Of a DNA stretch of 36,437 bases, positions 2,688-17,564 are shown piece by piece (the stretch's first letter is position 1; each line of letters opens with the position of its first letter). The notes below the pieces were generated by a model, which did no database searches, was not told the DNA's origin, and was given only the letters and a program-made list of their open reading frames with translations. The stretch lies in assembly GCA_036338695.1 (NCBI GenBank), contig JAYZBQ010000047.1, positions 1 through 36,437 on the forward strand, read 5' to 3'. Both the position numbers and the translations under genes were made by a program. Origin of the DNA: Myxococcota bacterium. GTDB lineage: Bacteria; Myxococcota; UBA4151.

Positions 2688-3584
2688 CTAGCTGAACTCT
2701 CGGAGCGCTTCGCCCCAGGCGACGCCGCGGTCACGGACCAAGAGCGCCTCGCGCCCCAAGCGATCGAGCGTGGCGATCAGCAGCGCAAGCCCAGCCGGAA
2801 AAACATCGGCGCGTCCCGGCGGCAAGCCGTGATCCGCCCGGCGCTCGGCGAGCGGCTTGGCCGCCAAGGCTCGAAAGATCTGGTCCAGCGACGTGCGGCT
2901 GATCTCGTGGTGATCGACGCGCTCCGGGTCATACTCGCTCAAGCCGAGGTCGACCTGCGCCGTGGTCGTGGCGGTCCCAGCGACGGCTACGAGCGCCCCC
3001 GGCAGCCCCGCAGGGACCACCTCAAGCTCCGCGGCGCAGGCGGCGAGCAACGCATCGCAGGCGGCATCATTCATCGGCGCGGTCAGCCCGAGCCGCTCGG
3101 TCAGCCGAACGCTCCCGACCTTGAGGCTGACCCGGCCGTCGAGCCCTTGGTCGTCGCCCCAAGCCAGCTCCGTCGAGGCGCCGCCGACGTCGATCATGAC
3201 GCACGCGCCGCCGAGCCCGTCGAGCGCAGCGCGAAAGCTCAGCTGCGCCTCCTCCTCGCCCGAGATCGGTCGCAGGGCGACCCCCAACCGCTTTGCCGCC
3301 TCGATCATCACCGCCTGATTACTGGCTTCGCGCAAAGCGGCGGTGCCCACCGCGACGACCGGCTCGGCGCCGAGCGAGCGAGCGCGCTCAGCAAAGCGCG
3401 CAAGCGCCTCAAGACTGCGCGCCATCGCCGCCTCGCTGAGCCGCCCGGACCCGTCCAGCCCTTCGCCGAGTCGCGTCAGCGCCAGCTCGCTGGTGACGCG
3501 CCGAAAGCCGCTGGCGTCGCGCTCGAGCACCAGCAGCACGCAACTGTTGCTTCCCAAGTCGATCGTCGCTACCCGGCTGCGCAT
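2688..3584 (-). CDS. ppx: Ppx/GppA family exopolyphosphatase / pppGpp phosphohydrolase, short form without C-terminal HD domain
   Basis: Motifs ATIDLGSNS, TRLGEG, GTAALREASN, ISGEEEA, IDVGGASTE, GRADVFPAG. ATG at 3584 preferred over 3683 because AGGAGG lies 6 nt upstream. Confidence 0.9.
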   Translation of the reverse strand: MRSRVATIDLGSNSCVLLVLERDASGFRRVTSELALTRLGEGLDGSGRLSEAAMARSLEALARFAERARSLGAEPVVAVGTAALREASNQAVMIEAAKRLGVALRPISGEEEAQLSFRAALDGLGGACVMIDVGGASTELAWGDDQGLDGRVSLKVGSVRLTERLGLTAPMNDAACDALLAACAAELEVVPAGLPGALVAVAGTATTTAQVDLGLSEYDPERVDHHEISRTSLDQIFRALAAKPLAERRADHGLPPGRADVFPAGLALLIATLDRLGREALLVRDRGVAWGEALREFS

Positions 3585-3645
3585 GCTCAACCTCCTGGCG
3601 CAGATGTGCCGAAGAGTAAGGAGGTTGGGAAGATCCTGCGCATGC
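3577..3645 (-). promoter_or_regulatory. Inverted repeat that can sequester the ppx Shine-Dalgarno; contains an 18-codon uORF
   Basis: CAACCTCCT (3588-3596) and AGGAGGTTG (3619-3627) form a perfect 9-bp inverted repeat. CTGCGCATGC is directly repeated at 3577-3586 and 3636-3645. Confidence 0.4.
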
Positions 3646-3676
3646 ATCGGTCTTGAGAGACGAAGGGCAGACGACC

Positions 3677-4099
3677 ATGGCATTTAGCTTAGGCGGCGGC
3701 GACGACGATCACCCAGTCGCTGAGATCAACATCACGCCGATGGTGGACATCATGCTGGTGCTCCTGATCATCTTCATGGTGACGGCGCCGCTGATGAAGC
3801 AAGGGGTCGATGTCAACCTCCCGCAAGCCGCTTCCACGCCGGTGAATACAGAGGACGACCGCCTCGTCCTCACCATGACCAAGGCGAAGAAGTTTTTCCT
3901 CGGCAAGGTCGAGATCCCTGCGGCCCAGCTCGCCCAAAAACTGGGCGCAAACGCCAAGATCAAGGAGGGCAAAGCCTTGTATCTCCACGCCGACGCAGCG
4001 CTCGGCTACGGCGAGGTGGTCGCCATCATGGCGGACCTGCGCCAAGCGGGCGTCCGGCAGCTCGGTTTGATCACCGACCCCGAGGCGCCCACGCCATGA
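3677..4099 (+). CDS. tolR: TolR/ExbD biopolymer transporter
   Basis: EINITPMVDIMLVLLIIFMVTAP transmembrane motif with the conserved Asp; C-terminal LHADAALGYGEVVAIMADLRQAG. ATG at 3677. Confidence 0.92.
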   Translation: MAFSLGGGDDDHPVAEINITPMVDIMLVLLIIFMVTAPLMKQGVDVNLPQAASTPVNTEDDRLVLTMTKAKKFFLGKVEIPAAQLAQKLGANAKIKEGKALYLHADAALGYGEVVAIMADLRQAGVRQLGLITDPEAPTP

Positions 4100-4836
4100 G
4101 CGCACGGCCGAAGGCATCGCAACGAGCGATCGGCTGGTCTCGAGCGCTGGGTCTGAGCGTCGGGTTGCACGGCTTGATCGTCCTCGGGTTGGTCTTTGCA
4201 GGGGGTGACGCGCCAGCCAAACCCCTGCAGCACGCCATCGTCGCCGAGCTCGTCGCCAAAGGCGAAGAGCAAAAGAAGAAAGAGCTCCCACGCCGGGTCC
4301 GCACCACAAAAAAGCGCCCCAGCCCCAAACGCGCCAAGCGCCCGGTCCCCAAGCGCGCCAGCAAGGCGACCGAGCGATCGGCTGACGAAGCGCTTCAACG
4401 CCTCGAGGCGCTCGCTGCGGGCGAAGAAGCCGACGAGGCGCTGGCGCGTCTCGGTCAGCAGGAGCAGACGGGAGATGACCCCAAGGACGCAAAGGGAAAG
4501 AAAGAGGGCTCGGAGCAGGGGACTTTAAGCCAAGGTGAGCTCACGCAGCTGCAGAACAGCTACCTCAGCTTGGTCGGGCAGGCGATCAAAGCGGACGGCA
4601 ACTATCGCATCTCGGACACCATATCGGCGGCTGAGCGCGTTCGCTTAGTGGCCGTCCTGTTCTTGCGCATTGGCGCTCAAGGTCAGCTGCTCGAGGTCCG
4701 GCTGGAGTCCAGTTCCGGACACGACCAATTTGACCGGGACATCGTCAGCGCAGCGCGCTCGGCGCGCTACCCTGCGCCGCCCAAAGCGCTCGCCGTGCGC
4801 GTCGCGGCGGGCGTGAGAGGAACCTTCCGCCCATGA
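4096..4836 (+). CDS. tolA: TolA / TonB C-terminal domain protein
   Basis: N-terminal TM helix with SxxxH motif (SVGLH), Lys/Pro-rich linker, C-terminal ESSSGHDQFDRDIVSAA...PAPP. Lies between tolR and tolB with ATGA overlaps. Confidence 0.8.
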   Translation: MSARPKASQRAIGWSRALGLSVGLHGLIVLGLVFAGGDAPAKPLQHAIVAELVAKGEEQKKKELPRRVRTTKKRPSPKRAKRPVPKRASKATERSADEALQRLEALAAGEEADEALARLGQQEQTGDDPKDAKGKKEGSEQGTLSQGELTQLQNSYLSLVGQAIKADGNYRISDTISAAERVRLVAVLFLRIGAQGQLLEVRLESSSGHDQFDRDIVSAARSARYPAPPKALAVRVAAGVRGTFRP

Positions 4837-6128
4837 TCTACGCGCTCGCACTCAGCCTGCTCGCTAGCGACTTCGAGGTCTCTGGCGCCACCGTCTCCGC
4901 CTACCCCATCGCCGTCGCCGAGGTCGCAACAGCGGGTGAGCTCGGCTTGGCATCCGCTCAGCTCCGAAAGCGGATTGAGCCCATGCTCGACCTGACCGGG
5001 ATGTTCCGGGTCCTCGACCGAGCGAGTTTTCTGGCGCCCGCCACCGAGCCTGCAGAGGCTGCTCAGATCAACTGGGAGGCGTGGCAACAAGTCGGCGCGC
5101 GCGGGCTGCTCAAGCTCGCCCTGCGCGCCAGCGGGCAGCAGACAGAGGTCAACTGGCGCCTCTACGACGCCGGCACACAAGCCCTCTTGACCAAAGGCTC
5201 GATCAAGACCGACGCTAAGAAAGCGGCGAGCACAGCGCCGGCTATCGCAGACGCCGTGATCCTCAGGCTGTCCGGCGAGCCGGGTCCCTTCGCCAGCCGG
5301 ATCGCCTTCACACGCCGAGAGGGGCGTAACTCGTCGATCTGGACAACCGCCTCCGACGGCTCGGACCTCAGGCGGGTCACCAACGACAAAACCCTCAACA
5401 TCCTGCCCGCCTGGGGCGCCGGCGGGCAGAGCCTCTACTTCACCCACCTAAGCGACCAAGGTCAGCACCTCTACCTCGCAGGCATCAACGGAGGGCCTTG
5501 GAAAGGCATCTCGCGGCGCAAAGGCTCCAACGCCGGCGCCGCGCTCAGTCGTGGCCCGGTGACGCTCGGCGGTAAAACCCACAAGCGCTTGCTCGCGCTC
5601 GCGCTGAGCCGAGACGGCAACACCGAGCTCTACGCGCTGACACCAGGCGGTGAGATCGTTGCGCAGCTGACCAAGCACTGGGCGATCGACTGCTCGCCAA
5701 GCTGGAGCCCCGACGGCAAGTCGCTTGCGTTCGTATCCAACCGAGGCGGCTCGCCGCAGATCTATGCGCTCAAGCTCGCGGACTTGAGCGTTCGGCGGCT
5801 CACCTTCAAAGGCAGCTACAACCAGACGCCTGCCTGGTCGCCTCGCGGCGACCTGATCGCGTTTAGTGGGCGCGATGAGCGCAACGTCTTTGACCTGTTC
5901 ACGGTGAACCCGAGCACCCTGGAGATCAAACGCCTCACGCAGGCTCAAGGGCAGAACCAAGAGCCGAGCTGGGCGCCCAACGGACGCCTGATCGTCTTCT
6001 CGTCCACGCGCAACGGACAGGGCGCCCGACTCTACATCATGCGCGAAGATGGTCGCCATCATCGCCTGCTGAACCCAAAGCTCGGCGCGGCCACCACGCC
6101 GCGCTGGTCCGGGTTTCGGACCCCGTAA
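4833..6128 (+). CDS. tolB: TolB beta-propeller periplasmic protein
   Basis: Signal peptide, TolB N-terminal domain (GPFASRIAF), PD40-type repeats SPSWSPDGKSLAFVSNRGG, TPAWSPRGDLIAF, EPSWAPNGRLIVFSS. Confidence 0.92.
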   Translation: MIYALALSLLASDFEVSGATVSAYPIAVAEVATAGELGLASAQLRKRIEPMLDLTGMFRVLDRASFLAPATEPAEAAQINWEAWQQVGARGLLKLALRASGQQTEVNWRLYDAGTQALLTKGSIKTDAKKAASTAPAIADAVILRLSGEPGPFASRIAFTRREGRNSSIWTTASDGSDLRRVTNDKTLNILPAWGAGGQSLYFTHLSDQGQHLYLAGINGGPWKGISRRKGSNAGAALSRGPVTLGGKTHKRLLALALSRDGNTELYALTPGGEIVAQLTKHWAIDCSPSWSPDGKSLAFVSNRGGSPQIYALKLADLSVRRLTFKGSYNQTPAWSPRGDLIAFSGRDERNVFDLFTVNPSTLEIKRLTQAQGQNQEPSWAPNGRLIVFSSTRNGQGARLYIMREDGRHHRLLNPKLGAATTPRWSGFRTP

Positions 6129-6136
6129 GACAGGTC

Positions 6137-6232
6137 GTACCCGCCGCTCACCTAAACCTTTGACCGGCGCGAGACGTTCTCGGTGACGAAGCCCCGCGCG
6201 TGCGGGGTCGTTTTAGGCGTGAGCGTGGTATG
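6137..6232 (+). promoter_or_regulatory. Structured RNA element filling the tolB-pilM intergenic region (terminator-like hairpin inside a larger multi-stem fold)
   Basis: CGCTCAC 6145-6151 pairs with GTGAGCG 6219-6225; CCTAAA 6151-6156 with TTTAGG 6212-6217; CGAGA 6170-6174 with TCTCG 6178-6182; GCCCCGC 6191-6197 with GCGGGGT 6202-6208, followed by CGTTTT. Confidence 0.5.
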
Positions 6233-7294
6233 GCGAAACTGAGTCTAGGTCTCGATATCGGGTCGCACCAGGTCAAGCTGGTGGCGCTGACGCAGACTCG
6301 GCGCGGCTACCGCCTCGACCAGGTCGGGAGCATGCCGATCCCCGCTGAGACCATCGTCGACGAAGAGCTGCTCAACTCAGCGGCGCTGGTCTCCACGCTG
6401 CGTGAGCTGCTGGCGAAGACGCAGGTCCGGCGTCGCGACGCCGCCATCGGCCTTGGCGGACGCGCCACGATCGTACGGCACATCCGGCTGCCAGCGATGA
6501 GCGAAGCCGAGCTCGAAGAGAGCCTGGCGTGGGAAGCCAAGCAATACATACCCTTCGACCTCGAGGAGGTTTACCTCGACTTCCACATGGGCCGAGTGGA
6601 CGAAGAGACCGAGCAGATGGACGTCATCCTCGTGGCGGCGAAGCGAACCGTCGTCGACGATTACTGCGCCGCCGTTCGGTTGGCGGGTCTCAAGCCGGTG
6701 GTCGTCGACGCCCTGCCCTTCGCAGCGGCTAACGCCTTCAACCACGCTTACCCGGAACATTATGATGAGGTCACCGCCATCGTCGACCTCGGCGCCCACC
6801 TGTGCACGGTCTCCGTCGTCCACCAAGGCGAGGTCCTCTACAGCAGAGCGCTCGAGCAAGGCTCCGCCAAGCTGACCGATGCGCTGCAGCGGCAGCTTGC
6901 GCTGCCTTACGCTCAAGCCGAAGCCTTCAAAACCGGCGACGTCGCCGATGGGCTGGTCCCCGCAGACGTCCAGCGCGTGCTCGAAGAGGCGAGCGGCGAG
7001 ATGGTCGGTGAGCTGCGCAACCTGATCAACTACCACGCCGACCAAGGCGGGCTACCGCTTGAGCGCCTGTATCTATCGGGTGGTGCGGCGAATTCAGACG
7101 CCCTCTGCACGGCGCTCGCACGAGAGATCGGGCTCGATGCGGCGCGACTCGACCCCTTTCGTGCGCTCCAAAGCAAACACCGAGCCGCCGACGTCAGCGA
7201 ACTTCAACGGCTCGGCTGCCAAGCGACCATTGCGATGGGGCTGGGCTGCCGCTCCACGCTGGATCGCCTCGACGCCAGTAAGGAACGCAAATGA
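6230..7294 (+). CDS. pilM: Type IV pilus assembly protein PilM (actin-like)
   Basis: LGLDIGSHQVKLV, WEAKQYIPFDLEEVYLDF, VILVAAKR, AIVDLGA, LYLSGGAA; first gene of the MNOPQ series. Confidence 0.95.
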   Translation: MAKLSLGLDIGSHQVKLVALTQTRRGYRLDQVGSMPIPAETIVDEELLNSAALVSTLRELLAKTQVRRRDAAIGLGGRATIVRHIRLPAMSEAELEESLAWEAKQYIPFDLEEVYLDFHMGRVDEETEQMDVILVAAKRTVVDDYCAAVRLAGLKPVVVDALPFAAANAFNHAYPEHYDEVTAIVDLGAHLCTVSVVHQGEVLYSRALEQGSAKLTDALQRQLALPYAQAEAFKTGDVADGLVPADVQRVLEEASGEMVGELRNLINYHADQGGLPLERLYLSGGAANSDALCTALAREIGLDAARLDPFRALQSKHRAADVSELQRLGCQATIAMGLGCRSTLDRLDASKERK

Positions 7295-7974
7295 TCCGCG
7301 TTAACTTACTGCCGATCCGAGAGGAGGCGCGCCAGCGCGACCTCAAACAGCAGCTCATGCTGCTGGGCCTCGTCGTGATCGCCGAGATGCTGGCGCTGTC
7401 CATGTGGTACGCCTCGGTAGCTGATGTCCTGGGCACCCGCCAGAGCGAGCTGCGCATCGAGCAACGCAAAACGACCGAGCTTCAGCGCGAAGCCGGCACC
7501 CTCGATAAGCTCAAAAAAGAAGAAGAGAAGCTGCGCGCCAAAGCCGAGATCGTCGACATCATCGACAAGCTGCGCGCCGACCCTTCACGCGTCATGATGC
7601 AGCTGGCGCGCAACATCCCCAACCGCGTCTGGCTGACCGGGATGTCCTTCTATCCGATCGCTCAACCTTTGGGTCTTAGGGATCCGGTCGTCAAAGGCGG
7701 CGAGCGCATCAGCATCGACATGCTGCCCAAGCTCGCTGAGCCGATCTTTGCGATCGGCGTAACGGGCTACGCCATGGGCCCTTCAGACGTCACCGACTTC
7801 GCCAAGAACATGCGCGGCAGCGCGCTCTTCGATCACATCGAGTTCGGGGAGGTCAAAGAGGTCCTCTACAAAGAGGCTCAGATCCCCGTCCAAAGCTTCA
7901 GTTTGTTCGCCCGTGTGGCAGGCTGGAAGCCAGCTGAGATCGATCGAAGCGGGAAGAAACGAGGTAAGAAGTGA
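7291..7974 (+). CDS. pilN: Type IV pilus assembly protein PilN
   Basis: MIRVNLLP PilM-binding motif, TM helix, coiled coil, IPNRVWLTGM; 4-nt overlap with pilM. Confidence 0.92.
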   Translation: MIRVNLLPIREEARQRDLKQQLMLLGLVVIAEMLALSMWYASVADVLGTRQSELRIEQRKTTELQREAGTLDKLKKEEEKLRAKAEIVDIIDKLRADPSRVMMQLARNIPNRVWLTGMSFYPIAQPLGLRDPVVKGGERISIDMLPKLAEPIFAIGVTGYAMGPSDVTDFAKNMRGSALFDHIEFGEVKEVLYKEAQIPVQSFSLFARVAGWKPAEIDRSGKKRGKK

Positions 7975-8618
7975 ACAACCTTCAAAATCTCGTCGAGCGC
8001 TGGGGTGGGCTCCCCAAGCAGCAGCGGCTGCTCATCGCTTTTGGGACGCCGGTCGTCGTCTTCGCTGTCTTTTACTTTCTGATCCTCAGCGGCGTCGAGG
8101 GAAGCCTCCAGGAGACCACCCAAAACATCTCCAAAGAGCGCCGCACGCAAGGCGACCTCGAGGTCGAGATTCGTAACCAACACGTGCTTGAGCAGGAATT
8201 TAAGTTCAAACAAGCTAAGGTGCGCGAGATCGAGCGAAAGATCCCGATGGAGGCGGACCCGGGTGATCTGCTCGATAAGGTCTATGAGCAAGCGGGGGTC
8301 TCGCGGCTGGACCTCAGGACCTTCAAACCGGAGTCCGAGCTGCGGGTCAAAGAGATGGCCTTCATCATCAACCGAGGCGACTTCTCGGGGACCTACCACG
8401 CCGTGGGTGAATTCCTGGACCGCATCGGCCACCTCGAGCGCCTCGTGAAGGTCTTGGCGATTCAGTTCAAGGTCAACCAGAACGCCAAATCCAAAGATGG
8501 CTCACTGATTGCCAACCAGCTTGTCGGGACCGCCACCATCGCAGCGTTTCGCCTGCTGCGCGATGACGAGCTCGAGAGCTTGAGCAAAAAGAAGAAGCGG
8601 CGAGGGCGTAGACGATGA
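7971..8618 (+). CDS. pilO: Type IV pilus assembly protein PilO
   Basis: TM helix, coiled coil, GTYHAVGEFLDRIGHLERLV signature; GTGA overlap with pilN. Confidence 0.92.
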   Translation: MNNLQNLVERWGGLPKQQRLLIAFGTPVVVFAVFYFLILSGVEGSLQETTQNISKERRTQGDLEVEIRNQHVLEQEFKFKQAKVREIERKIPMEADPGDLLDKVYEQAGVSRLDLRTFKPESELRVKEMAFIINRGDFSGTYHAVGEFLDRIGHLERLVKVLAIQFKVNQNAKSKDGSLIANQLVGTATIAAFRLLRDDELESLSKKKKRRGRRR

Positions 8619-9262
8619 TGCGCCTCTTCCTGCTCACGCTCACCCTCGCGCTCACAGCCTGCGGCGATGATGAGGGCTCGTCCGGCGCTTCGCCAAGCAA
8701 CGCGAACCGCCCGAACAACAACAACAACAACGGGAATGCAGGGCCAAACAACGCCGCACCCCAAGCGAGCAATGCGCCCGAGAAGGCGAAAGAAGAAGAA
8801 GCCTTCGTCTACCGCTCCGATGGGGTCCGAGACCCCTTCGCGCCCTTCATCGTCAACGTGACCGACGACGACCCCAAGGAGCGCTGCGCGCTGTGTGTAC
8901 CGCTCGCTAACCTCACGTTTACCGGCGTGGTCACAGGGATCGCCTCGCCGGTGGCGCTCGTGGAGACCCGTGAGGGCGTGGGTTACTTCGTCCGCCGAGG
9001 CTCCGAGCTCGGCGCCAACGGCGGGCGCGTCATCGACATCCGAGAGGGGATCATCCTGCTGCGAGAGCGCTTTCAAGACCAGCTCGGCAGGATCTCTGTC
9101 GTCGATCGCTCCCTGCGTATCCGCTCGGAAGACCCGATGGCTTCGAAACCCTCAGAGGATGAGCTCATCGAGACCTCTGACCCCCGCCCCGCCAACGACA
9201 ACTCAGCGCCCTCCGAGGAGGAGCGCGTAAAGAAAACTTCGGGACCGGCCGATGAACTCTAG
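8615..9262 (+). CDS. pilP: Type IV pilus lipoprotein PilP
   Basis: Lipobox LTAC, FVYRSDGVRDPF motif, ALVETREGVGYFVRRGSELGANGGRVIDI beta-domain. Confidence 0.9.
   Translation: MMRLFLLTLTLALTACGDDEGSSGASPSNANRPNNNNNNGNAGPNNAAPQASNAPEKAKEEEAFVYRSDGVRDPFAPFIVNVTDDDPKERCALCVPLANLTFTGVVTGIASPVALVETREGVGYFVRRGSELGANGGRVIDIREGIILLRERFQDQLGRISVVDRSLRIRSEDPMASKPSEDELIETSDPRPANDNSAPSEEERVKKTSGPADEL
8714..8731 (+). repeat. (AAC)6 in-frame trinucleotide repeat encoding poly-Asn in the PilP N-terminal tether
   Basis: aacaacaacaacaacaac read directly. Confidence 0.9.
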
Positions 9263-9274
9263 AAGGAGGTTTCG

Positions 9275-11794
9275 GTGACCACAGCTCGACACATCGCGCT
9301 CTTTAGCTTCATCAGCCTTGGCTGGGCGATCAGCTCGGCGAGTGCGCAAGATCAGCCGCGCTATGACCACTGGCACTGGAGCACCAGTAAAGGCAACGCG
9401 CACCTAATCGGCGGCGTCGCCGTCGTCGAAGACCAAGGCGACCTGCGGGTCGTAGTGCGGGGCAACGCCCAGTTTCGAAGGATCGGGCTGATGCGTCTCG
9501 CCAAGCCGGAGCGCCTGATCATCGATCTCCCCGGTGTGCGGCGCCCACGGCGTGTCCAACCCATTGTCCAAGCCGGCACCCTCGCAAGCGGAGTCCGTAT
9601 GAGCCGCAACAGCGGGGTCTTACGCATCGTCGTCGACCTGAGCAACGAGCCGTGGCTGTACACGGAGTCCAAAGCCCTTGGAAACGGCTTTGAGGTCCGC
9701 CTCAAGCGCCCCAACCAGCCGATCGCCCGGCTCCAAGAACCGGCTCAAGAGGCGATCAAAATGGTCGACGCGCGGCTCAAAGACCATGGCTCGTTCGTGC
9801 GCGCAACGATCGCCTTTGATCGTGAGGCTCGCTTCTTGCGCGACCCCAACGAAGGCAGCCTGCGCTCGCTACGGATCCCGAAGTGCTCCATTCCGGACGC
9901 GTTGATTCAAGGTCAAGATATCGGCTCAGAGCGCGCGCCGCTTCAGAGCCTCTCAACCTTTAGAGATCGCAAGATCGCCGATCAATGCCGCGTCCTGATC
10001 GACGTCGCAGCGGGCGCCGAAGACGCCGTCTGGACCCAAGGCAAGCGCCTTTTCTGGGACATCCGCTTTGCCCCGAAGGTCGCTCAGCGCGTCGCCGCCG
10101 AAGAGGACGACACCGAGGTCGAGGACGCGCCGGAAGAGTTTGAAGACGACCCTGCCTCAGATACCGGCGAGGAAGAAGAGGACGACGAGGAAGAAGAAGA
10201 AGGCGACGAAGAGGACGACGAGGAAGAAGAAGAAGAAGGCGACGAAGAGGACGACGAGGAAGAAGAAGAAGGCGACGAAGAAGGCGACGAAGAGGAAGAA
10301 GAAGGCGACGAGGAAGACGAAGAGGAAGGCGACGAAGAGGATGATGAAGACGACGACGAAGAATTCGAGGACGACGAAGAATTCGAAGACGAAGAAGACG
10401 ATCAGTTTACGCTGACCGCCGACCGACGCATCACCCTCGACACCCAAGGCGCCGACATCATCAACGTCCTTCGGCTGATCTCAGAGGTCGCTGGTATTAA
10501 CATCATCGCCTCCGATGAGGTCAAAGGACGCATCAGCTTACGCTTGCGCAATGTGCCTTGGCAGGATGCGCTCAAGGTGGTCCTGCGCGTCAAAGGGCTC
10601 GGCGCAGTCCGTGACTCCATCGACACCGAGAACACCACGAGTACGATCGCAACCAGCCGCGACGAGATGCTCAAAGAGCAGAGCAAAGCTCGGCGTCAGG
10701 TCAACATTATCCGGATCGATACGCTGGAGAACCTGCAAGCCGAGGCGAAAGCCAAAGCCGACCTCAAGAAGACCATCGAAGAGGGCGTTCCAACCAAGGT
10801 TCAGATGTTCGCCATCAATTACGGCGCCGCAGCGGACCTCGCCGGTCACGTCGAGAAGCTCGTCGGTGAGCGCGGCCGCGTTCAGGTGGATGAGCGCACC
10901 AACTATCTGATCGTCGAGGCGACGCCGAACAACTTGGTTCAGGTAGAGGCGGTGCTCAAAGAGCTCGACATCAAAACCGATCAGGTGTTGATCGAGGCGC
11001 GCATGGTCGAGGCCAGCACAAGCTTTGTTCGCTCGCTCGGTGTCCAGTGGCAGCCCTTGTTCTCCATGGCGCCTGCGACGGGTAACGCAACCGGCTTACC
11101 CTTCCCCAACGCTATCACCGGAAACGGCGGCGCAGTTGACAGTGCGAGCTCCGTACAGCCCTTCCCGAACAGCACGCCCTTTGCGGTCAACCTCCCCTCA
11201 AGCGTGGAGACCGGTGCGCTCGGCTTGATCCTTGGGTCAGCAGGTAACGCCCTGACGCTTAACCTGCGCATCAGCGCCGGTGAGACGAACGGTACCGCCA
11301 AAACCATCTCGTCCCCTCGAGTCGTTACCCTCAATCACAAGAAGGCGGAGATCATTCAGGGCGTCGAGATTCAAGTGAGTGAAGTGACCGCTCAGGGTCC
11401 CACGGTCCGCGGGATCCCGGCTGAGCTTCGGCTGGGTGTGACGCCGCACATCAACGCCGACGGTATGATCCAGATGAACATCGACCTGCAAAATGACCGA
11501 CCCGACTTCACTCGCCAGGTCAAGGGTGTGCCCTCCATCGAAAAGAAACAGGCACGCACCGAGGTGATGATCCGAGACGGTGACACCAGCGTGATCGGCG
11601 GCGTCTACACTCGCAACATGGCGAACGAGCGCAAAGAGGTCCCCGGTCTGAGCAAGCTCCCCCTGCTCGGCTACCTCTTCCGCAACGACTTCCAAACCGA
11701 CGAGCGACGAGAGCTGTTGATCTTTATCACCCCCCGATTAATCGATAAGCTGCGACAGCAGGCGGGGATGGATGCAGCCGAGGACGAGCAATAA
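9275..11794 (+). CDS. pilQ: Type IV pilus secretin PilQ with AMIN-like domains and a long acidic linker
   Basis: AGGAGG then GTG start; signal peptide; AMIN-like RLIIDLPG/LRIVVDL; N0 RITLDTQGADIINVLRLISEV; N3 VQVDERTNYLIV; secretin QVLIEARMVEA, SPRVVTLN, VPGLSKLPLLGYLFR, RELLIFITPR. Confidence 0.96.
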   Translation: MTTARHIALFSFISLGWAISSASAQDQPRYDHWHWSTSKGNAHLIGGVAVVEDQGDLRVVVRGNAQFRRIGLMRLAKPERLIIDLPGVRRPRRVQPIVQAGTLASGVRMSRNSGVLRIVVDLSNEPWLYTESKALGNGFEVRLKRPNQPIARLQEPAQEAIKMVDARLKDHGSFVRATIAFDREARFLRDPNEGSLRSLRIPKCSIPDALIQGQDIGSERAPLQSLSTFRDRKIADQCRVLIDVAAGAEDAVWTQGKRLFWDIRFAPKVAQRVAAEEDDTEVEDAPEEFEDDPASDTGEEEEDDEEEEEGDEEDDEEEEEEGDEEDDEEEEEGDEEGDEEEEEGDEEDEEEGDEEDDEDDDEEFEDDEEFEDEEDDQFTLTADRRITLDTQGADIINVLRLISEVAGINIIASDEVKGRISLRLRNVPWQDALKVVLRVKGLGAVRDSIDTENTTSTIATSRDEMLKEQSKARRQVNIIRIDTLENLQAEAKAKADLKKTIEEGVPTKVQMFAINYGAAADLAGHVEKLVGERGRVQVDERTNYLIVEATPNNLVQVEAVLKELDIKTDQVLIEARMVEASTSFVRSLGVQWQPLFSMAPATGNATGLPFPNAITGNGGAVDSASSVQPFPNSTPFAVNLPSSVETGALGLILGSAGNALTLNLRISAGETNGTAKTISSPRVVTLNHKKAEIIQGVEIQVSEVTAQGPTVRGIPAELRLGVTPHINADGMIQMNIDLQNDRPDFTRQVKGVPSIEKKQARTEVMIRDGDTSVIGGVYTRNMANERKEVPGLSKLPLLGYLFRNDFQTDERRELLIFITPRLIDKLRQQAGMDAAEDEQ
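10100..10402 (+). repeat. Purine-rich imperfect tandem repeat encoding a 101-aa Asp/Glu tract in PilQ
   Basis: Units such as GAAGAGGACGACGAGGAAGAAGAAGAAGGCGAC (33-36 nt) recur. PilQ aa 276-376 has 83 D/E of 101 residues by hand count. Confidence 0.95.
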
Positions 11795-11804
11795 GGTACA
11801 GACG

Positions 11805-12707
11805 ATGCTACCTTCCCGCACGTGGAGTGCTCCTAGCATGATGGTTCGCGCAGCGCTGCTCCTCGGCCTCATCGGCTGCCCGCAGACGCAACAAGAAGCA
11901 GAAGAAGTGGCGATGACCATCGGCTCGGTGGTCTCAGCGGGTGGCAACTGCAACTGGGACGGCTCCGGTGGTCCGCTCCGCACAGGCCAAATGGACCTCA
12001 TCAGCGTCGCCTCACCCGGCGGCGCCATCGGCCACAGCAGGCGCTACCCCATCGGGGTGCAGTGGGGTCTAAACTCCTCGACGCGCTCAGAAGCCAGCGA
12101 CGAGCCAGGCAGCGCCTTTGGTGACAGCTTTATCACGCTCAAGGACGTTGAGGTTCGGCTCATCTTCGACGACGCTGTCGTGCTCCCACCCACCGACGAG
12201 ACCCGCGCCAATCTCCCGGCGAGCTATGTGGTCCCGACCATGGGGACGCAAGATGTCGGCACGCCGCCGATCGCTGTCTTTGACCTGATCCCAACCTGGG
12301 TGACTCAGCGGTTGGCGCTCGATCGTCAAATTTGGCTCGACACCAGCACGGACTCCAACCTCGGCACGCGTATACCGGCACCCGGTAAGGACTACCTGCT
12401 TGCCACCGAGTTTCGGCTCCGAGGGCTCAACGCAGGAGGTAAAACGGTCGTCTCCAACTGGTTCCGGTGGGTCGTCTCCTTGTGCCGAGGGTGCCGAGTC
12501 AGCTTCACCGGCACGCCACCCATGCGCCCGGCGCCCGGCTTCCCCGGTTTTCCCGGGCATTACGGATCCGATGAGCTGACCCAGCCCGAACCGCTGCCAT
12601 CACGCCCGGGGATCATCAACTGGTGTAACGGCGGGGTCCATCAAGGCGGGTTCGCCAAGGACGTGGTCATGCCGTCTCAACCCCTGCGCCCGAAGGTCTA
12701 CGAATGA
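11805..12707 (+). CDS. Hypothetical lipoprotein downstream of pilQ (paralog 1)
   Basis: Lipobox LIGC after a hydrophobic stretch; start 11805 or 11838; VVSLCRGC motif; Pro-rich tail. Confidence 0.8.
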   Translation: MLPSRTWSAPSMMVRAALLLGLIGCPQTQQEAEEVAMTIGSVVSAGGNCNWDGSGGPLRTGQMDLISVASPGGAIGHSRRYPIGVQWGLNSSTRSEASDEPGSAFGDSFITLKDVEVRLIFDDAVVLPPTDETRANLPASYVVPTMGTQDVGTPPIAVFDLIPTWVTQRLALDRQIWLDTSTDSNLGTRIPAPGKDYLLATEFRLRGLNAGGKTVVSNWFRWVVSLCRGCRVSFTGTPPMRPAPGFPGFPGHYGSDELTQPEPLPSRPGIINWCNGGVHQGGFAKDVVMPSQPLRPKVYE

Positions 12708-14086
12708 AGCGAATGCTGCTCAGCCTGATGATCCTCTCGTCCGGGGCTTGCGATGCGTTGACCGACGCCAGCGAGACCCCGGTCACGACCTCGATCATGA
12801 TCGTCGGCGCAGCCTTGGCGGAGCCCACCTGCGACGTGAGCGCTAGCTCGGATCGGCTGGTGCGCGGTATCTACGATATCAAGGGTGTCGACAGCACCAA
12901 CGGTATCGGCAAGCAGTACACGACCAACCTTATCGTGCGTGACCAGACCCAAGCCGGCGTCGGCTCCAAAAAGCTGATCGTCGAATACGATTTCACCGGT
13001 AACCTCGTTCAACCGACGGCGGCCACGCGCAACGCCCTGCGCGAGTGCGTCGAGCTCGGCGTACCTTTTGGGGGCTGGACCCAAGGCGACGATGGTCAAG
13101 AGCTGCTGGTGGTGACCTCGCCGGTGATCCCGGAGCACGTCACGCAGATCCTCGCCAACGACCCCGCAATCAGCGCCGAGCTCAACCGCACCAGCACGAC
13201 CATGAACACCGTCTCGGGACTCCCTGGCTACTACACAGTCCAGGTTAAGATTCAGGCGCTCAGCCTGGGCTTGAACGGACAGTGGCTCCGGTCTCCCCCG
13301 TATTTTATGACCGTCGACCTGTGCGATGGTTGCCTGACGCGCATTCCCGAGCAGCTCGTCCCAGACCAACCCGACCCGACCTGTATCCCGTACCAAGACC
13401 GCATCTGGCAAAAGCTGACCTACCCGGAGTTCCCCGACCTGACCGCGAAGACCGAAGGGCCGCTCAACGACGGTGACCTCAATATGCCGCTCGAGACGGT
13501 GAACCAAGGCGGCACGGCGACGCTCGGCTCCTTTGGCGCGACCCGCGGCGGTCGCTCGAAGTCGGCGATCTGGCTGGTCACACCCAATCATGACGGCAAG
13601 ACCGAATTCACCTACGCTGGACTCCAAGTCGCAGAGCGAAACCCTTACGCCACCTGCGGCGTCAACAACGTAGTCCCAGGCGAGTCTGAAAAGTGCCTGG
13701 TGCCGACCTACCCACGGGTCTGCGAAGACGGGCGAACACCCTGTAGCAAGGACGAAGACTGCAACGGCGGGAGCTGCACAACGGCGCCGAGCCTGCGCGT
13801 CACCGAAGAGCCAGGCTTCACGCGGCAGTTCGCTTGCGGGACTCCCAGCGAGAACACCAACACGGGCGGTGGCGGCGACGCCGGCCCAGGAGCCGATGGT
13901 GGTCCTCCCCCCCCTGCTGCCGACGGTGGCTTGCCGGTGGTAGCCTGCCTTTACATCGTCTGCGCGGATGTGGATAACGAGGTGCTCGAGTGGAGTCCCG
14001 ACCCAGAGAGTTGGGAAAGCGCAAAGAGCAACTGCACGTGTTACTCCGAAGACTCTGACCTGGCTGAAGATGGCTGCCCACTCTAA
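12704..14086 (+). CDS. Hypothetical Cys-rich lipoprotein (paralog 2) with C-terminal extension
   Basis: MKRMLLSLMILSSGAC lipoprotein signal; ATGA overlap with paralog 1; TVDLCDGC motif; Cys-rich C-terminal half. Confidence 0.85.
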   Translation: MKRMLLSLMILSSGACDALTDASETPVTTSIMIVGAALAEPTCDVSASSDRLVRGIYDIKGVDSTNGIGKQYTTNLIVRDQTQAGVGSKKLIVEYDFTGNLVQPTAATRNALRECVELGVPFGGWTQGDDGQELLVVTSPVIPEHVTQILANDPAISAELNRTSTTMNTVSGLPGYYTVQVKIQALSLGLNGQWLRSPPYFMTVDLCDGCLTRIPEQLVPDQPDPTCIPYQDRIWQKLTYPEFPDLTAKTEGPLNDGDLNMPLETVNQGGTATLGSFGATRGGRSKSAIWLVTPNHDGKTEFTYAGLQVAERNPYATCGVNNVVPGESEKCLVPTYPRVCEDGRTPCSKDEDCNGGSCTTAPSLRVTEEPGFTRQFACGTPSENTNTGGGGDAGPGADGGPPPPAADGGLPVVACLYIVCADVDNEVLEWSPDPESWESAKSNCTCYSEDSDLAEDGCPL

Positions 14087-14303
14087 CTCACCGACGATCC
14101 AGACCGACACCTTGGCGCGCATCCTTGCGGACCAAGGGCACATCGCCGACGCACGAGCGATGCTCAACCACCTCCAAGGCACGACGCCGAACTCAGAACG
14201 AAGCGAGCAGCTTCGCGCGCTCGATGCCGACCAGACCCGCCAAAAAATAGAACGCCTTGAGGCGTTGCTGGCGCATATTCGGTCACAGCGAGAGGATGGC
14301 TGA
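14070..14303 (+). CDS. Small (77 aa) protein resembling the C-terminal module of deltaproteobacterial TPR proteins encoded before roadblock genes
   Basis: TDTLARILADQGHIADARAML...KIERLEALLAHIR. Fills the gap and its stop overlaps the roadblock ATG (TGATG). Family resemblance is from memory. Confidence 0.65.
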   Translation: MAAHSNSPTIQTDTLARILADQGHIADARAMLNHLQGTTPNSERSEQLRALDADQTRQKIERLEALLAHIRSQREDG

Positions 14304-14665
14304 TGTTCGAGCAGACCCTAGCTGAGCTCGTCGACGCCGTAGACGGTGCGCTGATGAGCACGGTGATCGGCTACGACGGCATTGACCTTGGGCGCGCCAT
14401 GACCCCGAAAGTCAAAGGGCAAACGGACAGCCTTGTCGTCGAGACGGCAGCCCTGATGAACCGTATGCGGCAGGTGGCGGAGCAGCTGCGCATGGGGGCG
14501 GTCAAAGAGCTCGCCCTCGAGGCAGAGGCGCTCACGCTGGTCCTCCGACCGGTCGATGAACGCTTTGTGCTCGCGCTGGCGCTCGAGCCTGAAGGCAACC
14601 TCGGGATGGCGCGCTATCAACTAGCGGTCAAAGCGCCCGAATTACGACGCGCGCTCGCCAGCTAA
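14303..14665 (+). CDS. mglC: Roadblock/LC7 domain protein, MglC-like
   Basis: 120 aa; VDGALMSTVIGYDGI, FVLALALEPEGNLGMARYQL; position between pilQ and efp-accB-accC as recalled for myxobacterial mglC. Confidence 0.75.
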   Translation: MFEQTLAELVDAVDGALMSTVIGYDGIDLGRAMTPKVKGQTDSLVVETAALMNRMRQVAEQLRMGAVKELALEAEALTLVLRPVDERFVLALALEPEGNLGMARYQLAVKAPELRRALAS

Positions 14666-14668
14666 ACG

Positions 14669-15127
14669 ATGCGAATCGTCGTCCTGCACGGCCCCAACCT
14701 CAACCGGCTCGGGACCCGTCAGCCCGAGCTCTATGGCACCACGACCCTCGCCGACATCGACTCGATGCTCCACGAGCTAGCAGCTCAACTTAACGTCGAG
14801 CTACAGACCGAACAACACAACGGCGAGGGTGCGCTGATCGATGCGGTCCATCGCGCCGACGTCGCCGACGCCATCCTGATCAACCCAGCGGCTTATACCC
14901 ACACCTCCGTGGCGCTGCGTGATGCCTTGCTCGCGGTCGAGCTGCCGACTTGGTCGGTCCACCTCACCGAGCCGCGCACCCGAGAGCCGTATCGCCAGGT
15001 CGACCTCATCGAAGACCTCTGCGTAGGGCGGACGGCGGGCCGAGGGGCGGCCTCCTACACCGAGGCGCTAAGCGAACTCGTCAATTGGCTGAATACCCGC
15101 GCAAAAAAGCCGCACTTGTCCGCCTGA
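14669..15127 (+). CDS. aroQ: Type II 3-dehydroquinate dehydratase
   Basis: LHGPNLNRLGTRQPELYG, INPAAYTHTSVALRDA. Confidence 0.93.
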   Translation: MRIVVLHGPNLNRLGTRQPELYGTTTLADIDSMLHELAAQLNVELQTEQHNGEGALIDAVHRADVADAILINPAAYTHTSVALRDALLAVELPTWSVHLTEPRTREPYRQVDLIEDLCVGRTAGRGAASYTEALSELVNWLNTRAKKPHLSA

Positions 15128-15175
15128 GCCGCCTGGTTTATCCGCTAGAGGCACAGAGCGCTTGGAGGCTAGCTG

Positions 15176-15739
15176 GTGTACGGTGTTTCCGACTTTCGTC
15201 GCGGTCTAAAGATCCAAATCGACAAGACCCCCTACTCGATTATCGACTTTGAGCACGTCAAGCCCGGTAAAGGCGCTGCGTTCACCCGCACCAAGCTGCG
15301 CGACCTGCGCAGCGGCCGCGTGCTCGAGCATACGTTCCGGTCGGGTGAAAAGATCATCAAACCCGACGTCTTTGAGACCGACATGCAGTACCTCTACAAC
15401 GACGGCGCGGACTTCGTCTTTATGGACTCGAAGACCTATGACCAGGTCGGTGTCAGCACGGACCTCATGGGCGATGACGCCAACTTCCTCCTCGAGGGGA
15501 TGACGGTCAAAGTGGTGATGTTTGAAGGACGAGTGATCGGGGTGGAGCTGCCCAACTTCGTCGTTCTGGAGGTCACCCAATGTGACCCGGCGGTCAAAGG
15601 CGACACGGTCACCGGCGCGACCAAATCAGCGACGGTCGAAACCGGCGCTAGCTTCAACGTTCCGCTCTTCATCAATGAGGGCGACAGCATCAAAGTGGAC
15701 ACCCGCACCGGCGACTATGTCGAACGCTCGAGGAAATAG
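15176..15739 (+). CDS. efp: Translation elongation factor P
   Basis: HVKPGKGAAF, MQYLYNDG, VPLFINEGDSIKVDTRTGDYVER; GGAGG before the GTG. Confidence 0.97.
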   Translation: MYGVSDFRRGLKIQIDKTPYSIIDFEHVKPGKGAAFTRTKLRDLRSGRVLEHTFRSGEKIIKPDVFETDMQYLYNDGADFVFMDSKTYDQVGVSTDLMGDDANFLLEGMTVKVVMFEGRVIGVELPNFVVLEVTQCDPAVKGDTVTGATKSATVETGASFNVPLFINEGDSIKVDTRTGDYVERSRK

Positions 15740-15742
15740 ACG

Positions 15743-16213
15743 ATGAACCTTCGCACCCTTCGCACGATTATCGAACTGTTTGAGGCGTCCTCAGCGGTCG
15801 AGATGGAGCTCGACAACTCAACGATCGGTAAGCTCAAGCTTCGCCGTCCAGAGGCTGGCGGTGTGGCGCCGGCGCCGGCGCGCCTGCCCGAGCTCGCCAG
15901 CGTCGCCCCGGTGGCCGCTGCGAGCCCAAGCGCAGCACCTGCGCCTGCTCAAACGGCAGCGGATGACCCGAGCCTGTCTCAGGTCAACTCACCCTTCGTC
16001 GGGACCTTTTATCGCTCGCCGAACCCAGATTCTGACCCCTTCGTCTCGGTGGGTGATCGCGTCAAAAAGGGTCAGACGGTCTGCATCATCGAAGCGATGA
16101 AGCTGATGAACGAGCTTGAAGCCGAATGCGACGGCGTCGTCGAGGCCATCTTGGTCGAGAACGGCAGCCCCGTCGAACACGGTCAGCCTGTGATCTCCAT
16201 CCGCCCAGCCTAA
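15743..16213 (+). CDS. accB: Acetyl-CoA carboxylase biotin carboxyl carrier protein
   Basis: Ala/Pro linker, [11 protein letters not shown], biotinylation motif [10 protein letters not shown]. Confidence 0.97.
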
Positions 16214-16226
16214 TCTGGAGCGACTC

Positions 16227-17564
16227 ATGACGATCTCGAAAATTTTGGTCGCGAACCGTGGCGAGATCGCCATGCGGGTGATCCGCGCCGCACGCGATCT
16301 CGGCATCCCAACCGTTGCGGTCCACTCGACGGTCGACCGTGAGAGTCCGCACGTTCGCATGGCGGATCAGGCCTTCTGCATCGGCCCTGCGGCGAGCAGC
16401 GAGAGCTACCTTAATATCCCCACGCTCCTGTCGGTCTGTGAAGTCACCGGCGCCGACGCGGTGCATCCCGGCTATGGTTTCTTGTCGGAAAATGCCCAAT
16501 TTGCTGAGCTATGCGGCGTCTCAGGGATCACCTGGATCGGGCCTCCCCCGTCGGCGATTAACGCCATGGGTGACAAAATCCGAGCGCGTGAGCTGATGCA
16601 AGAAGCGGGGGTCCCGATCCTCCCGGGAACGCCCGGCGCCATTGAAGACGTCGCCGAGGCGCGTGCGCTGGCCGAAGAGATCGGCTTTCCGATGATCCTC
16701 AAAGCCGCAGCGGGCGGCGGCGGCCGTGGGATGAAAATCGTCGAACGCGCCGAAGACCTTGAGCAGAGCTGGTTGACCTGCTCAGCCGAGGCGGAGGCAG
16801 CTTTCGGAAGCGGCGCGGTCTATATGGAGCGCTTCCTGCGCTCGCCGCGGCACGTCGAGTTTCAGGTCGTGCTGGATCAGTACGGAGAGGGTGTTCACCT
16901 GTTTGAGCGTGACTGCTCGGTGCAGCGACGCCACCAAAAGCTGGTCGAAGAGGCGCCCTGCGTCGTGCTCGAAGAGTCGGCGCGGCAGGAGCTCGGCGCG
17001 CTCTGCGTCGAGGCGAGTAAAAAGATTGGTTACGTTGGGGTGGGGACCTTCGAATTCCTCTACGACACCGACGGCTCGCTGTACTTCATGGAGATGAACA
17101 CGCGCATCCAGGTCGAGCACCCCGTGACCGAAGCGATCACCGGAGTCGACTTAGTGCGCCTGCAGATCGAGATCGCTCAAGGCGCACACCTGCCGTTCAC
17201 GCAAGCCGAGGTCCCGGGTCCTTTTGGGCACGCGATGGAGTTTCGGATCAACGCCGAGACGCCTGACAAGTTCCTGCCCTCGCCAGGGCTGATCACCAAG
17301 TACGAACCAGCCGGCGGGATCGGCGTGCGCGTCGATGGTGTGGCTCATGCCGGCTACACCGTCTTACCCCACTACGACTCCATGGTCGCCAAGCTCATCG
17401 TTCATGGCGCCGATCGAGAGCAGTGCCTGCAGCGCGCGCGGCGTGCGCTCCATGAGTACCGTATCGAGGGCATCTCAACGACGATCCCGTTTCACCTGCG
17501 GCTCCTCGAGAATGAGCGCTTCGTCGCAGGGGACTATGACACCCACCTCTTAGCGACGATGTGA
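16227..17564 (+). CDS. accC: Acetyl-CoA carboxylase biotin carboxylase
   Basis: KILVANRGEIAMR, HPGYGFLSEN, KAAAGGGGRGM, ERDCSVQRRHQK, EMNTRIQVEHPVTE. Confidence 0.97.
   Translation: MTISKILVANRGEIAMRVIRAARDLGIPTVAVHSTVDRESPHVRMADQAFCIGPAASSESYLNIPTLLSVCEVTGADAVHPGYGFLSENAQFAELCGVSGITWIGPPPSAINAMGDKIRARELMQEAGVPILPGTPGAIEDVAEARALAEEIGFPMILKAAAGGGGRGMKIVERAEDLEQSWLTCSAEAEAAFGSGAVYMERFLRSPRHVEFQVVLDQYGEGVHLFERDCSVQRRHQKLVEEAPCVVLEESARQELGALCVEASKKIGYVGVGTFEFLYDTDGSLYFMEMNTRIQVEHPVTEAITGVDLVRLQIEIAQGAHLPFTQAEVPGPFGHAMEFRINAETPDKFLPSPGLITKYEPAGGIGVRVDGVAHAGYTVLPHYDSMVAKLIVHGADREQCLQRARRALHEYRIEGISTTIPFHLRLLENERFVAGDYDTHLLATM

Follow-up and report, generated by a model that had tools for sequence, protein, structure and literature searches.

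The window, a stretch of 36,437 nucleotides (positions 1 to 36,437 of contig JAYZBQ010000047.1), carries the pilMNOPQ genes of a type IVa pilus on its forward strand. It belongs to a genome of 3.36 Mb (64% G+C) for which five relatives were available, three from the same genus and two from a sister genus; the next relatives listed share only the phylum, and the database records name the group Myxococcota. The last gene of the cluster, pilQ (9275-11794, + strand), encodes a secretin of 839 amino acids that scores 368.7 bits against TIGR02515 (cut-off 284.35) and whose best match in the PDB is Myxococcus xanthus PilQ (3jc8, E 1e-106). As in type IVa PilQ proteins, the secretin domain is preceded by N0 and N1, the gene lies in pilMNOPQ context, and the genome also encodes a pilin and PilB/PilT-type ATPases. 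N-terminal AMIN domains are present as well, the first recognized by Pfam and the second by a profile of our own and by its predicted fold. We conclude that the protein encoded at 9275-11794 is a true PilQ. By analogy with its homologues, it would form a ring of 12 to 15 subunits through which the pilus passes, with the AMIN domains binding peptidoglycan.

The protein begins with a likely Sec signal peptide ending in ASA (aa 1-24, 9275-9346, + strand), read from the sequence. The first AMIN domain (9362-9706, +; Pfam AMIN at aa 52-129) is folded in the AlphaFold model and unusually basic, with a net charge of +11 here and +9 to +16 across the family; the outgroup values have a median of +2 and a 95th percentile of +8, with a maximum of +11 in 68 of the 69. 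A second, divergent AMIN-like domain follows (aa 161-265, 9755-10069, +). It gave no Pfam match and no significant pairwise BLAST match; a profile built by us from the outgroup region before N0 matches PilQ aa 116-275 at E 4e-17, and AlphaFold predicts a beta-rich fold with a pLDDT of about 90. A Foldseek search with the full PilQ model returned secretins only, which says nothing about this domain. The N0 domain (aa 383-446, Pfam N0/STN; 10421-10723, + with its insertion) is interrupted by a family-specific insertion of about 30 residues (aa 445-476, window 10607-10702), found in both genera and in none of the outgroups, the alignments of which split around it. Judged by charge comparison, the N1 and secretin domains (10799-11749, +) show no acidic shift, and they are neither longer nor more acidic than those of the outgroups. 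The AlphaFold model, which was built on an alignment of 76 sequences, folds the two N-terminal beta domains and the N0-N1-secretin part.

Between these two folded parts lies an acidic tract (aa 276-376, 10100-10402, +). An earlier note on this DNA, made from the sequence alone, had described it as a linker of 101 residues that is 82% acidic, and the count bears this out: 54 E and 29 D make up 83 of the 101 residues, together with 7 G and no K or R. Its placement between the AMIN-like domains and N0 is likewise upheld by Pfam, by our profile and by AlphaFold, in which aa 280-380 have a pLDDT of 30-39 and are predicted to be disordered. The same note had pointed to imperfect repeats of 33-36 nt with almost no T on the + strand. 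Only 14 T occur in the 303 nt, a scarcity explained by the codons for D and E, and in-frame units of 33-36 nt are present. Tandem Repeats Finder reports an array with a period of 33 nt at 10175-10398 (6.7 copies, 80% matches); its repeat core at 10175-10276 (+) consists of units of 33, 36 and 33 nt, of which the first and third are identical. The array is confined to the core of the tract and is flanked by a head (EEDDTEV...DTGE; 10100-10168, +), the sequence of which is conserved across the genus, and by an EFED-type end. Expansion by slippage, as the note had suggested, is supported by two observations. The repeat units differ in each species (EEGDD-type, EEGEFEDD-type and DEE-type), and GAA accounts for 38 of the 54 Glu codons in the tract, compared with 21% genome-wide, a bias that recent slippage is expected to produce. 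With 81 net negative charges per subunit and an assumed 14 subunits, a ring would display about a thousand charges, in agreement with the earlier estimate. A K/R/T-rich frame of 115 codons at 10068-10415 was dismissed as a by-product of GAN repeats, like the other alternative frames.

The tract exceeds what chance would give: when all six frames of the 3.36-Mb genome were scanned, no more than two segments had acidic scores above 15 (96 and 72), and the third scored 14.6. Halophile-type acidity of the whole proteome was considered and rejected, given that D+E amount to 12.5% and K+R to 10.7% over 2531 putative genes.

The possibility that the repeat had been inflated during assembly is rejected on the basis of repeat length, read depth and independent records. 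Within the tract, no exact repeat is longer than 46 nt. One 38-nt piece, present in two copies in the window, reaches depths of 20.8 and 21.6 in two runs, in which the flanks have depths of 8-9 and 9.5-13.5; this near doubling fits two copies. Near-identical contigs enter the tract from both sides, up to 10234 from the left and from 10255 onward, although no single contig spans it among the eight public runs, so that the exact length in this strain rests on tiling and depth. In addition, eight database records, which fall into two clusters at 90% identity (two sister species), span the whole tract. Their tracts measure 105-122 residues with 86-98 D/E and no K/R, two of the eight share the same tract, and by the same borders the tract of this strain measures 102 residues. 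The variation in length for which the note had called is thus present in the genus (102-122 aa), bearing in mind that these lengths come from assemblies, which can miscount units. One RNA run contains pieces 95-99% alike on both sides of the tract, which does not show transcription. Where labelled, the runs containing the gene come from marine, estuarine or salt-marsh samples.

The relatives carry the tract as well. In four of the five, the contig breaks off within a D/E tract at the end of the N-terminal half of pilQ, with 59-104 residues of the tract seen; the fifth, a genome 59% complete, has a C-terminal half that starts at the final residues of the tract. The acidic tract is, as judged from these sequences, a family trait. 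The linker between the last AMIN domain and N0 is 120-140 aa long with a net charge of -81 to -95 in nine family sequences; the outgroup counterpart, in the 88 of 110 proteins where it could be delimited, has a median length of 39 aa (5-95%: 38-48) and a net charge of +1. By sequence comparison, then, the tract replaces a neutral linker of about 39 residues and makes it about three times the usual length.

We found no such tract in 258 PilQ proteins from outside the family (118 + 140) or in 42 loci of the phylum; these sets overlap and comprise the closest PilQs by sequence rather than a sample of all bacteria. The statement in the earlier note that no secretin with such a tract was known holds for the PilQs surveyed and needs one qualification: four of the 258 (P0199, P0194, P0205 and P0267) have milder acidic linkers, with 21-27 D/E per 50 aa versus 42-48 here, and these lie between N-terminal domains, away from N0. 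A search of 5.8 billion proteins with the tract plus N0 recovered only the two family clusters among the 7984 word-sharing candidates that were scored, so that distant PilQs with such a tract may have escaped it. Such tracts are probably under-counted in databases, because they break pilQ and tsaP in short-read genomes of the family, pilQ being broken in all five relatives.

The only other long acidic segment of the genome is a stretch of 152 aa (C2:21591-22046) inside a gene for TsaP (G000:C2:21495-23246). This protein consists of a signal peptide, the tract, a LysM domain identified by Pfam, a second acidic stretch and C-terminal domains; both parts match TsaP of M. xanthus (3jc8_Ta, E 6e-38) and of P. 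aeruginosa (6ve2_O, E 4e-27), and each family genome yields a single match. By analogy, TsaP would be the wall-binding partner of PilQ, contacting both the PilQ ring and peptidoglycan. Its acidic score is 22-96 in all four family loci with a LysM domain, one further locus without LysM being outside this count, and at most 7.8 in 44 outgroup loci, where TsaP is already mildly acidic. The terminal tract varies from 33 to 152 aa, and contig-end fragments with a TsaP-like signal-peptide region, assigned by eye, also end in D/E runs. The LysM domain of TsaP is not more basic than in the outgroups. A single-sequence fold of TsaP, with a mean pLDDT of 37, was uninformative.

A third component shows the same trend. 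The lipoprotein PilP (8615-9262, +) has 215 residues, compared with 172 in M. xanthus, and ends in a family-specific acidic tail (9125-9259, +) with 13 D/E and 5 K/R in its last 45 residues; the tails of the sister genus contain 22-24 D/E and 0-3 K/R. Acidic tails of 40-55 aa are found in 8/8 family sequences and in 0/17 outgroup operons, namely those fully readable among 20 retrieved, and these tails also vary widely in size. The acidification of TsaP and PilP alongside PilQ, in both cases family-specific, is new and goes beyond what the earlier note had considered. With three of its components acidified, the type IVa pilus anchor of this family constitutes a novel variant. In the N-terminal linker of PilP, a short AAC repeat encodes a poly-Asn run (window 8714-8731).

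The genes pilM, pilN and pilO (6200-8618, +) encode proteins whose coiled-coil stalks align one-to-one with those of the outgroups, and the PilN and PilO stalks have no extra length or acidity. No tract is present in the genome's type II secretin or in its second AMIN protein, and a general habit of its wall-binding proteins or secretins was not seen. The charge of the pilin as a partner of the tract was also set aside, since it is -6 to -10 and within the outgroup range (-11 to +1). ComEC was found in all five family genomes searched. As separate observations, the C-termini of PilN and PilO are rich in K/R in this genus (window 7291-8618), the sister genus has a mixed or acidic tail on PilN, and similar basic tails occur in some outgroups; PilN also has an insertion of about 40 aa.

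The interpretation of these results that we favour is that selection maintains polyanionic leashes on PilQ, TsaP and PilP, which would together surround the pilus machine as a collar where it crosses the wall, a proposal to which we would give roughly even chances. The linker between AMIN and N0 and the acidic stretches of TsaP and PilP would serve as a flexible, self-repelling leash between the pore and the cell wall. Slippage would generate and renew the tracts, and selection would keep their charge and, roughly, their length, perhaps because hydrated, like-charged chains stay extended and untangled among about 14+7 copies. Such chains would also avoid adhering to the acidic pilus, and the wall anchors would gain about twice the reach. 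The portions available of two papers (PMC11525922, PMC12632996) place AMIN and the LysM domain of TsaP on the wall and PilP on N0 in other species; if the same arrangement applies here, the three acidic stretches would meet around the N0 ring.

In a toy bead model with screened charges, the constants of which come from general knowledge, the two ends of the family linker lie 10.7 nm apart at 0.7 M, 13.8 nm at 0.15 M and 17.0 nm at 0.05 M, compared with 9.1 nm when uncharged and 4.5-4.7 nm for the outgroup linker. At the ionic strength of seawater, charge therefore adds only about 18% to the extension in this model (10.7 vs 9.1 nm), and the tract would be mainly a long, soluble, non-sticky leash. 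Rough estimates of the Debye length (0.36 nm at 0.7 M) and the Donnan potential (-4 to -15 mV) make strong electrostatic gating unlikely. A bolder form of the proposal holds that PilQ, TsaP and PilP have co-evolved into a collar of 1000-2000 charges that gives a repeat-tuned, salt-responsive grip on the wall, and that secretins of other phyla may have arrived at the same solution independently. We regard this form as unlikely. If it were correct, the change in reach between 10.7 nm (0.7 M) and 17 nm (0.05 M) would loosen or tighten the grip.

In 20 tract segments comprising 1252 residues, we counted K=0, R=1, N=1 and Q=1 versus G=73, A=44 and V=20, that is 3 versus 137 for two classes that both lie one base from D/E codons; the segments had been chosen as D/E-rich with an equal penalty for every other residue, and the residues are not independent, owing to slippage copies and shared descent, so the comparison carries no formal test. 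The depletion of K/N/Q/R and the steady length of the PilQ tract are suggestive of selection. The opposing hypothesis is near-neutral growth, in which a lineage prone to GAA/GAC slippage accumulates D/E runs in any loop or tail that can accommodate them, the pilus linkers being the most tolerant sites. D/E tracts do occur in unrelated proteins of the relatives: a CHASE2-type cyclase (in both genomes of the sister genus), a response-regulator/cNMP protein, an IF3 tail, a DctM tail, a BamA-like loop and a cation exchanger loop, all found by a pattern search of the five relatives and labelled by inspection of the sequence and BLAST against our own ORFs. These runs indicate that the family has a background tendency to form them. 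The codon bias of fresh slippage, the 33-152 aa spanned by the TsaP tail and the labile size of the part of PilQ that precedes N0 (288-1061 aa across the group, 5-95%, n=231) also fit such growth, as does the finding, in the available part of PMC10653833, that M. xanthus needs just one AMIN domain. However, of the approximately 65 proteins of the genome with long low-hydrophobicity stretches (a crude gene filter listed 64 and dropped TsaP), only PilQ and TsaP are polyacidic. Neutral growth also accounts poorly for the narrow length of the PilQ tract despite its different units and for the near absence of K/N/Q/R, and the tight conservation of the outgroup linker argues that the site is not generally tolerant. 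For these reasons we think near-neutral growth unlikely, although it ranks first among the alternatives to the leash. The tracts share a single origin, with one family and six genomes behind them, and their co-occurrence is therefore no statistical test of co-evolution. With regard to the cyclase, poly-Glu lies in its likely periplasmic part in the sister genus (G004:C227, G005:C113, G005:C92), and the counterpart in this genome has a short EGEG stretch only. Giant-virus-like, K/N/I-rich contigs in G005 (C67, C134; L173, L140, L142, L148), likely contamination, were excluded from the family counts.

Other functions for the charge can be envisioned. The tract might fold back on the basic first AMIN domain as an intramolecular mask, cutting non-specific binding to wall or LPS and sharpening polar targeting. 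The family charge of this domain exceeds both the median and the 95th percentile of the outgroups, the acidic tracts of TsaP flank LysM on both sides, and autoinhibition by D/E repeats is documented in eukaryotic DNA-binding proteins, according to the accessible text of PMC10250230. That same text, however, has the effect dropping towards zero as ionic strength rises; moreover, the AMIN domain adjoining the tract is neutral and not more basic than usual, the LysM of TsaP is no more basic than in the outgroups, and the first AMIN of the sister genus (+9) is barely above them. We consider a mask quite unlikely. A collar could instead serve as a cation sponge that enriches Ca2+/Mg2+ around the pore, to the benefit of pilus-tip proteins or secretin stability. 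The 1100-2200 fixed charges per machine, with an estimated divalent enrichment of 1.3-3.3-fold, and the marine and estuarine occurrence would suit a sponge, whereas the species share no defined Ca2+-binding motif and have different E:D ratios. Seawater, moreover, already supplies about 10 mM Ca2+, and we hold this explanation to be very improbable. The least probable in our judgment, though by a narrow margin, is the pair of functions proposed in the earlier note, a spacer for a wider gap between outer membrane and wall or a charged brush that gates the passage of DNA or pilus. The longer reach in the toy model and the presence of ComEC agree with these functions, and, from what is available of PMC2884949, a basic repeat in Neisseria PilQ promotes DNA binding, so that an acidic one could do the opposite. 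The spacer is weakened because the tract precedes N0, outside the N0-N1-secretin axis, because neither the PilN/PilO stalks nor N1-secretin are longer than in the outgroups, which also led us to reject a wider periplasm, and because other envelope-spanning proteins lack tracts. The gate is weakened by the screening of charge in seawater estimated above, and tomography elsewhere shows AMIN domains projecting to the wall outside the channel, as far as the two papers cited for the wall position of AMIN could be consulted (PMC11525922, PMC12632996). The leash between pore and wall remains our preferred reading.

The system resembles PilQ-TsaP-PilP of M. xanthus (3jc8/3jc9; PMC10653833, available in part) in the pilMNOPQ operon, the order AMIN-N0-N1-secretin, the LysM and C-terminal domains of TsaP and the beta domain of PilP. 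It differs in having two AMIN domains instead of three, the N0 insertion, an acidic linker of 120-140 aa in place of a neutral one of ~39 aa with an AGF-type motif, and acidic extensions on TsaP and PilP. Among described features, the copy-variable basic repeat of Neisseria PilQ comes closest, with the opposite charge. In the accessible sections of PMC2884949 and PMC3031610, this small basic repeat is a charged tandem array of variable copy number within the periplasmic N-terminal portion of the protein, with 4-7 copies in N. meningitidis and 2-3 in N. gonorrhoeae. Unlike these short basic octapeptides, which are linked to DNA binding, the tract is acidic, spans 100-120 aa directly before N0 and is echoed by two partners; it has no K/R and no fixed unit across species. 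The TsaP linker of Pseudomonas aeruginosa, proposed to be an elastic band (bioRxiv 10.1101/2020.05.29.123786; PDB 6ve2), is similarly disordered and lies between a wall-binding domain and a secretin-bound part, but the portion of that preprint available to us mentions no acidic tract, whereas linker and N-terminus are D/E-rich here. Eukaryotic D/E repeats such as the HMGB1 tail, as described in the available part of PMC10250230, share a long D/E run beside a basic, polyanion-binding domain; here the first AMIN is basic and the adjacent AMIN-like domain neutral. Those repeats are nuclear, at low salt and directed at nucleic-acid targets, whereas the tract is periplasmic, marine and part of a multi-subunit ring. 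Among the papers listed by a literature search largely confined to openly accessible journals, none dealt with acidic tracts of PilQ, TsaP or PilP.

Structures do not show the disordered linkers of envelope machines, which are usually regarded as passive. In this lineage, three parts of one machine have shifted their linker chemistry in the same direction while the closest relatives keep ~39 residues in the PilQ linker, which provides a natural experiment on how the linkers of PilQ (AMIN-N0) and TsaP, and the charge they carry, affect anchoring, polar placement and resistance to force.

Several neighbouring and related loci deserve mention. Directly before pilM (window 2688-6128) lie tolR/exbD, tolA/tonB-like and tolB genes, with no tolQ before and no pal after them; the divergent upstream neighbour of the tolR/exbD gene presumably encodes Ppx/GppA. 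Downstream of pilQ (window 11772-17564) are genes for two lipoprotein-like proteins without Pfam or NCBIfam match and a small TPR-like ORF, followed by a Roadblock/LC7 protein, aroQ, efp, accB and accC. Elsewhere in the genome, a stand-alone frame of 718 aa (G000:C56:40948-43101, minus strand) with an AMIN domain, a long coiled coil and an AMIN-like end resembles the N-terminal half of long PilQs without the secretin domain, and a similar match is present in G001. A His-Asp dipeptide repeat occurs at a contig end (G000:C29:6364-6912, minus strand) in a protein that we take to be a CobW-type metal chaperone.
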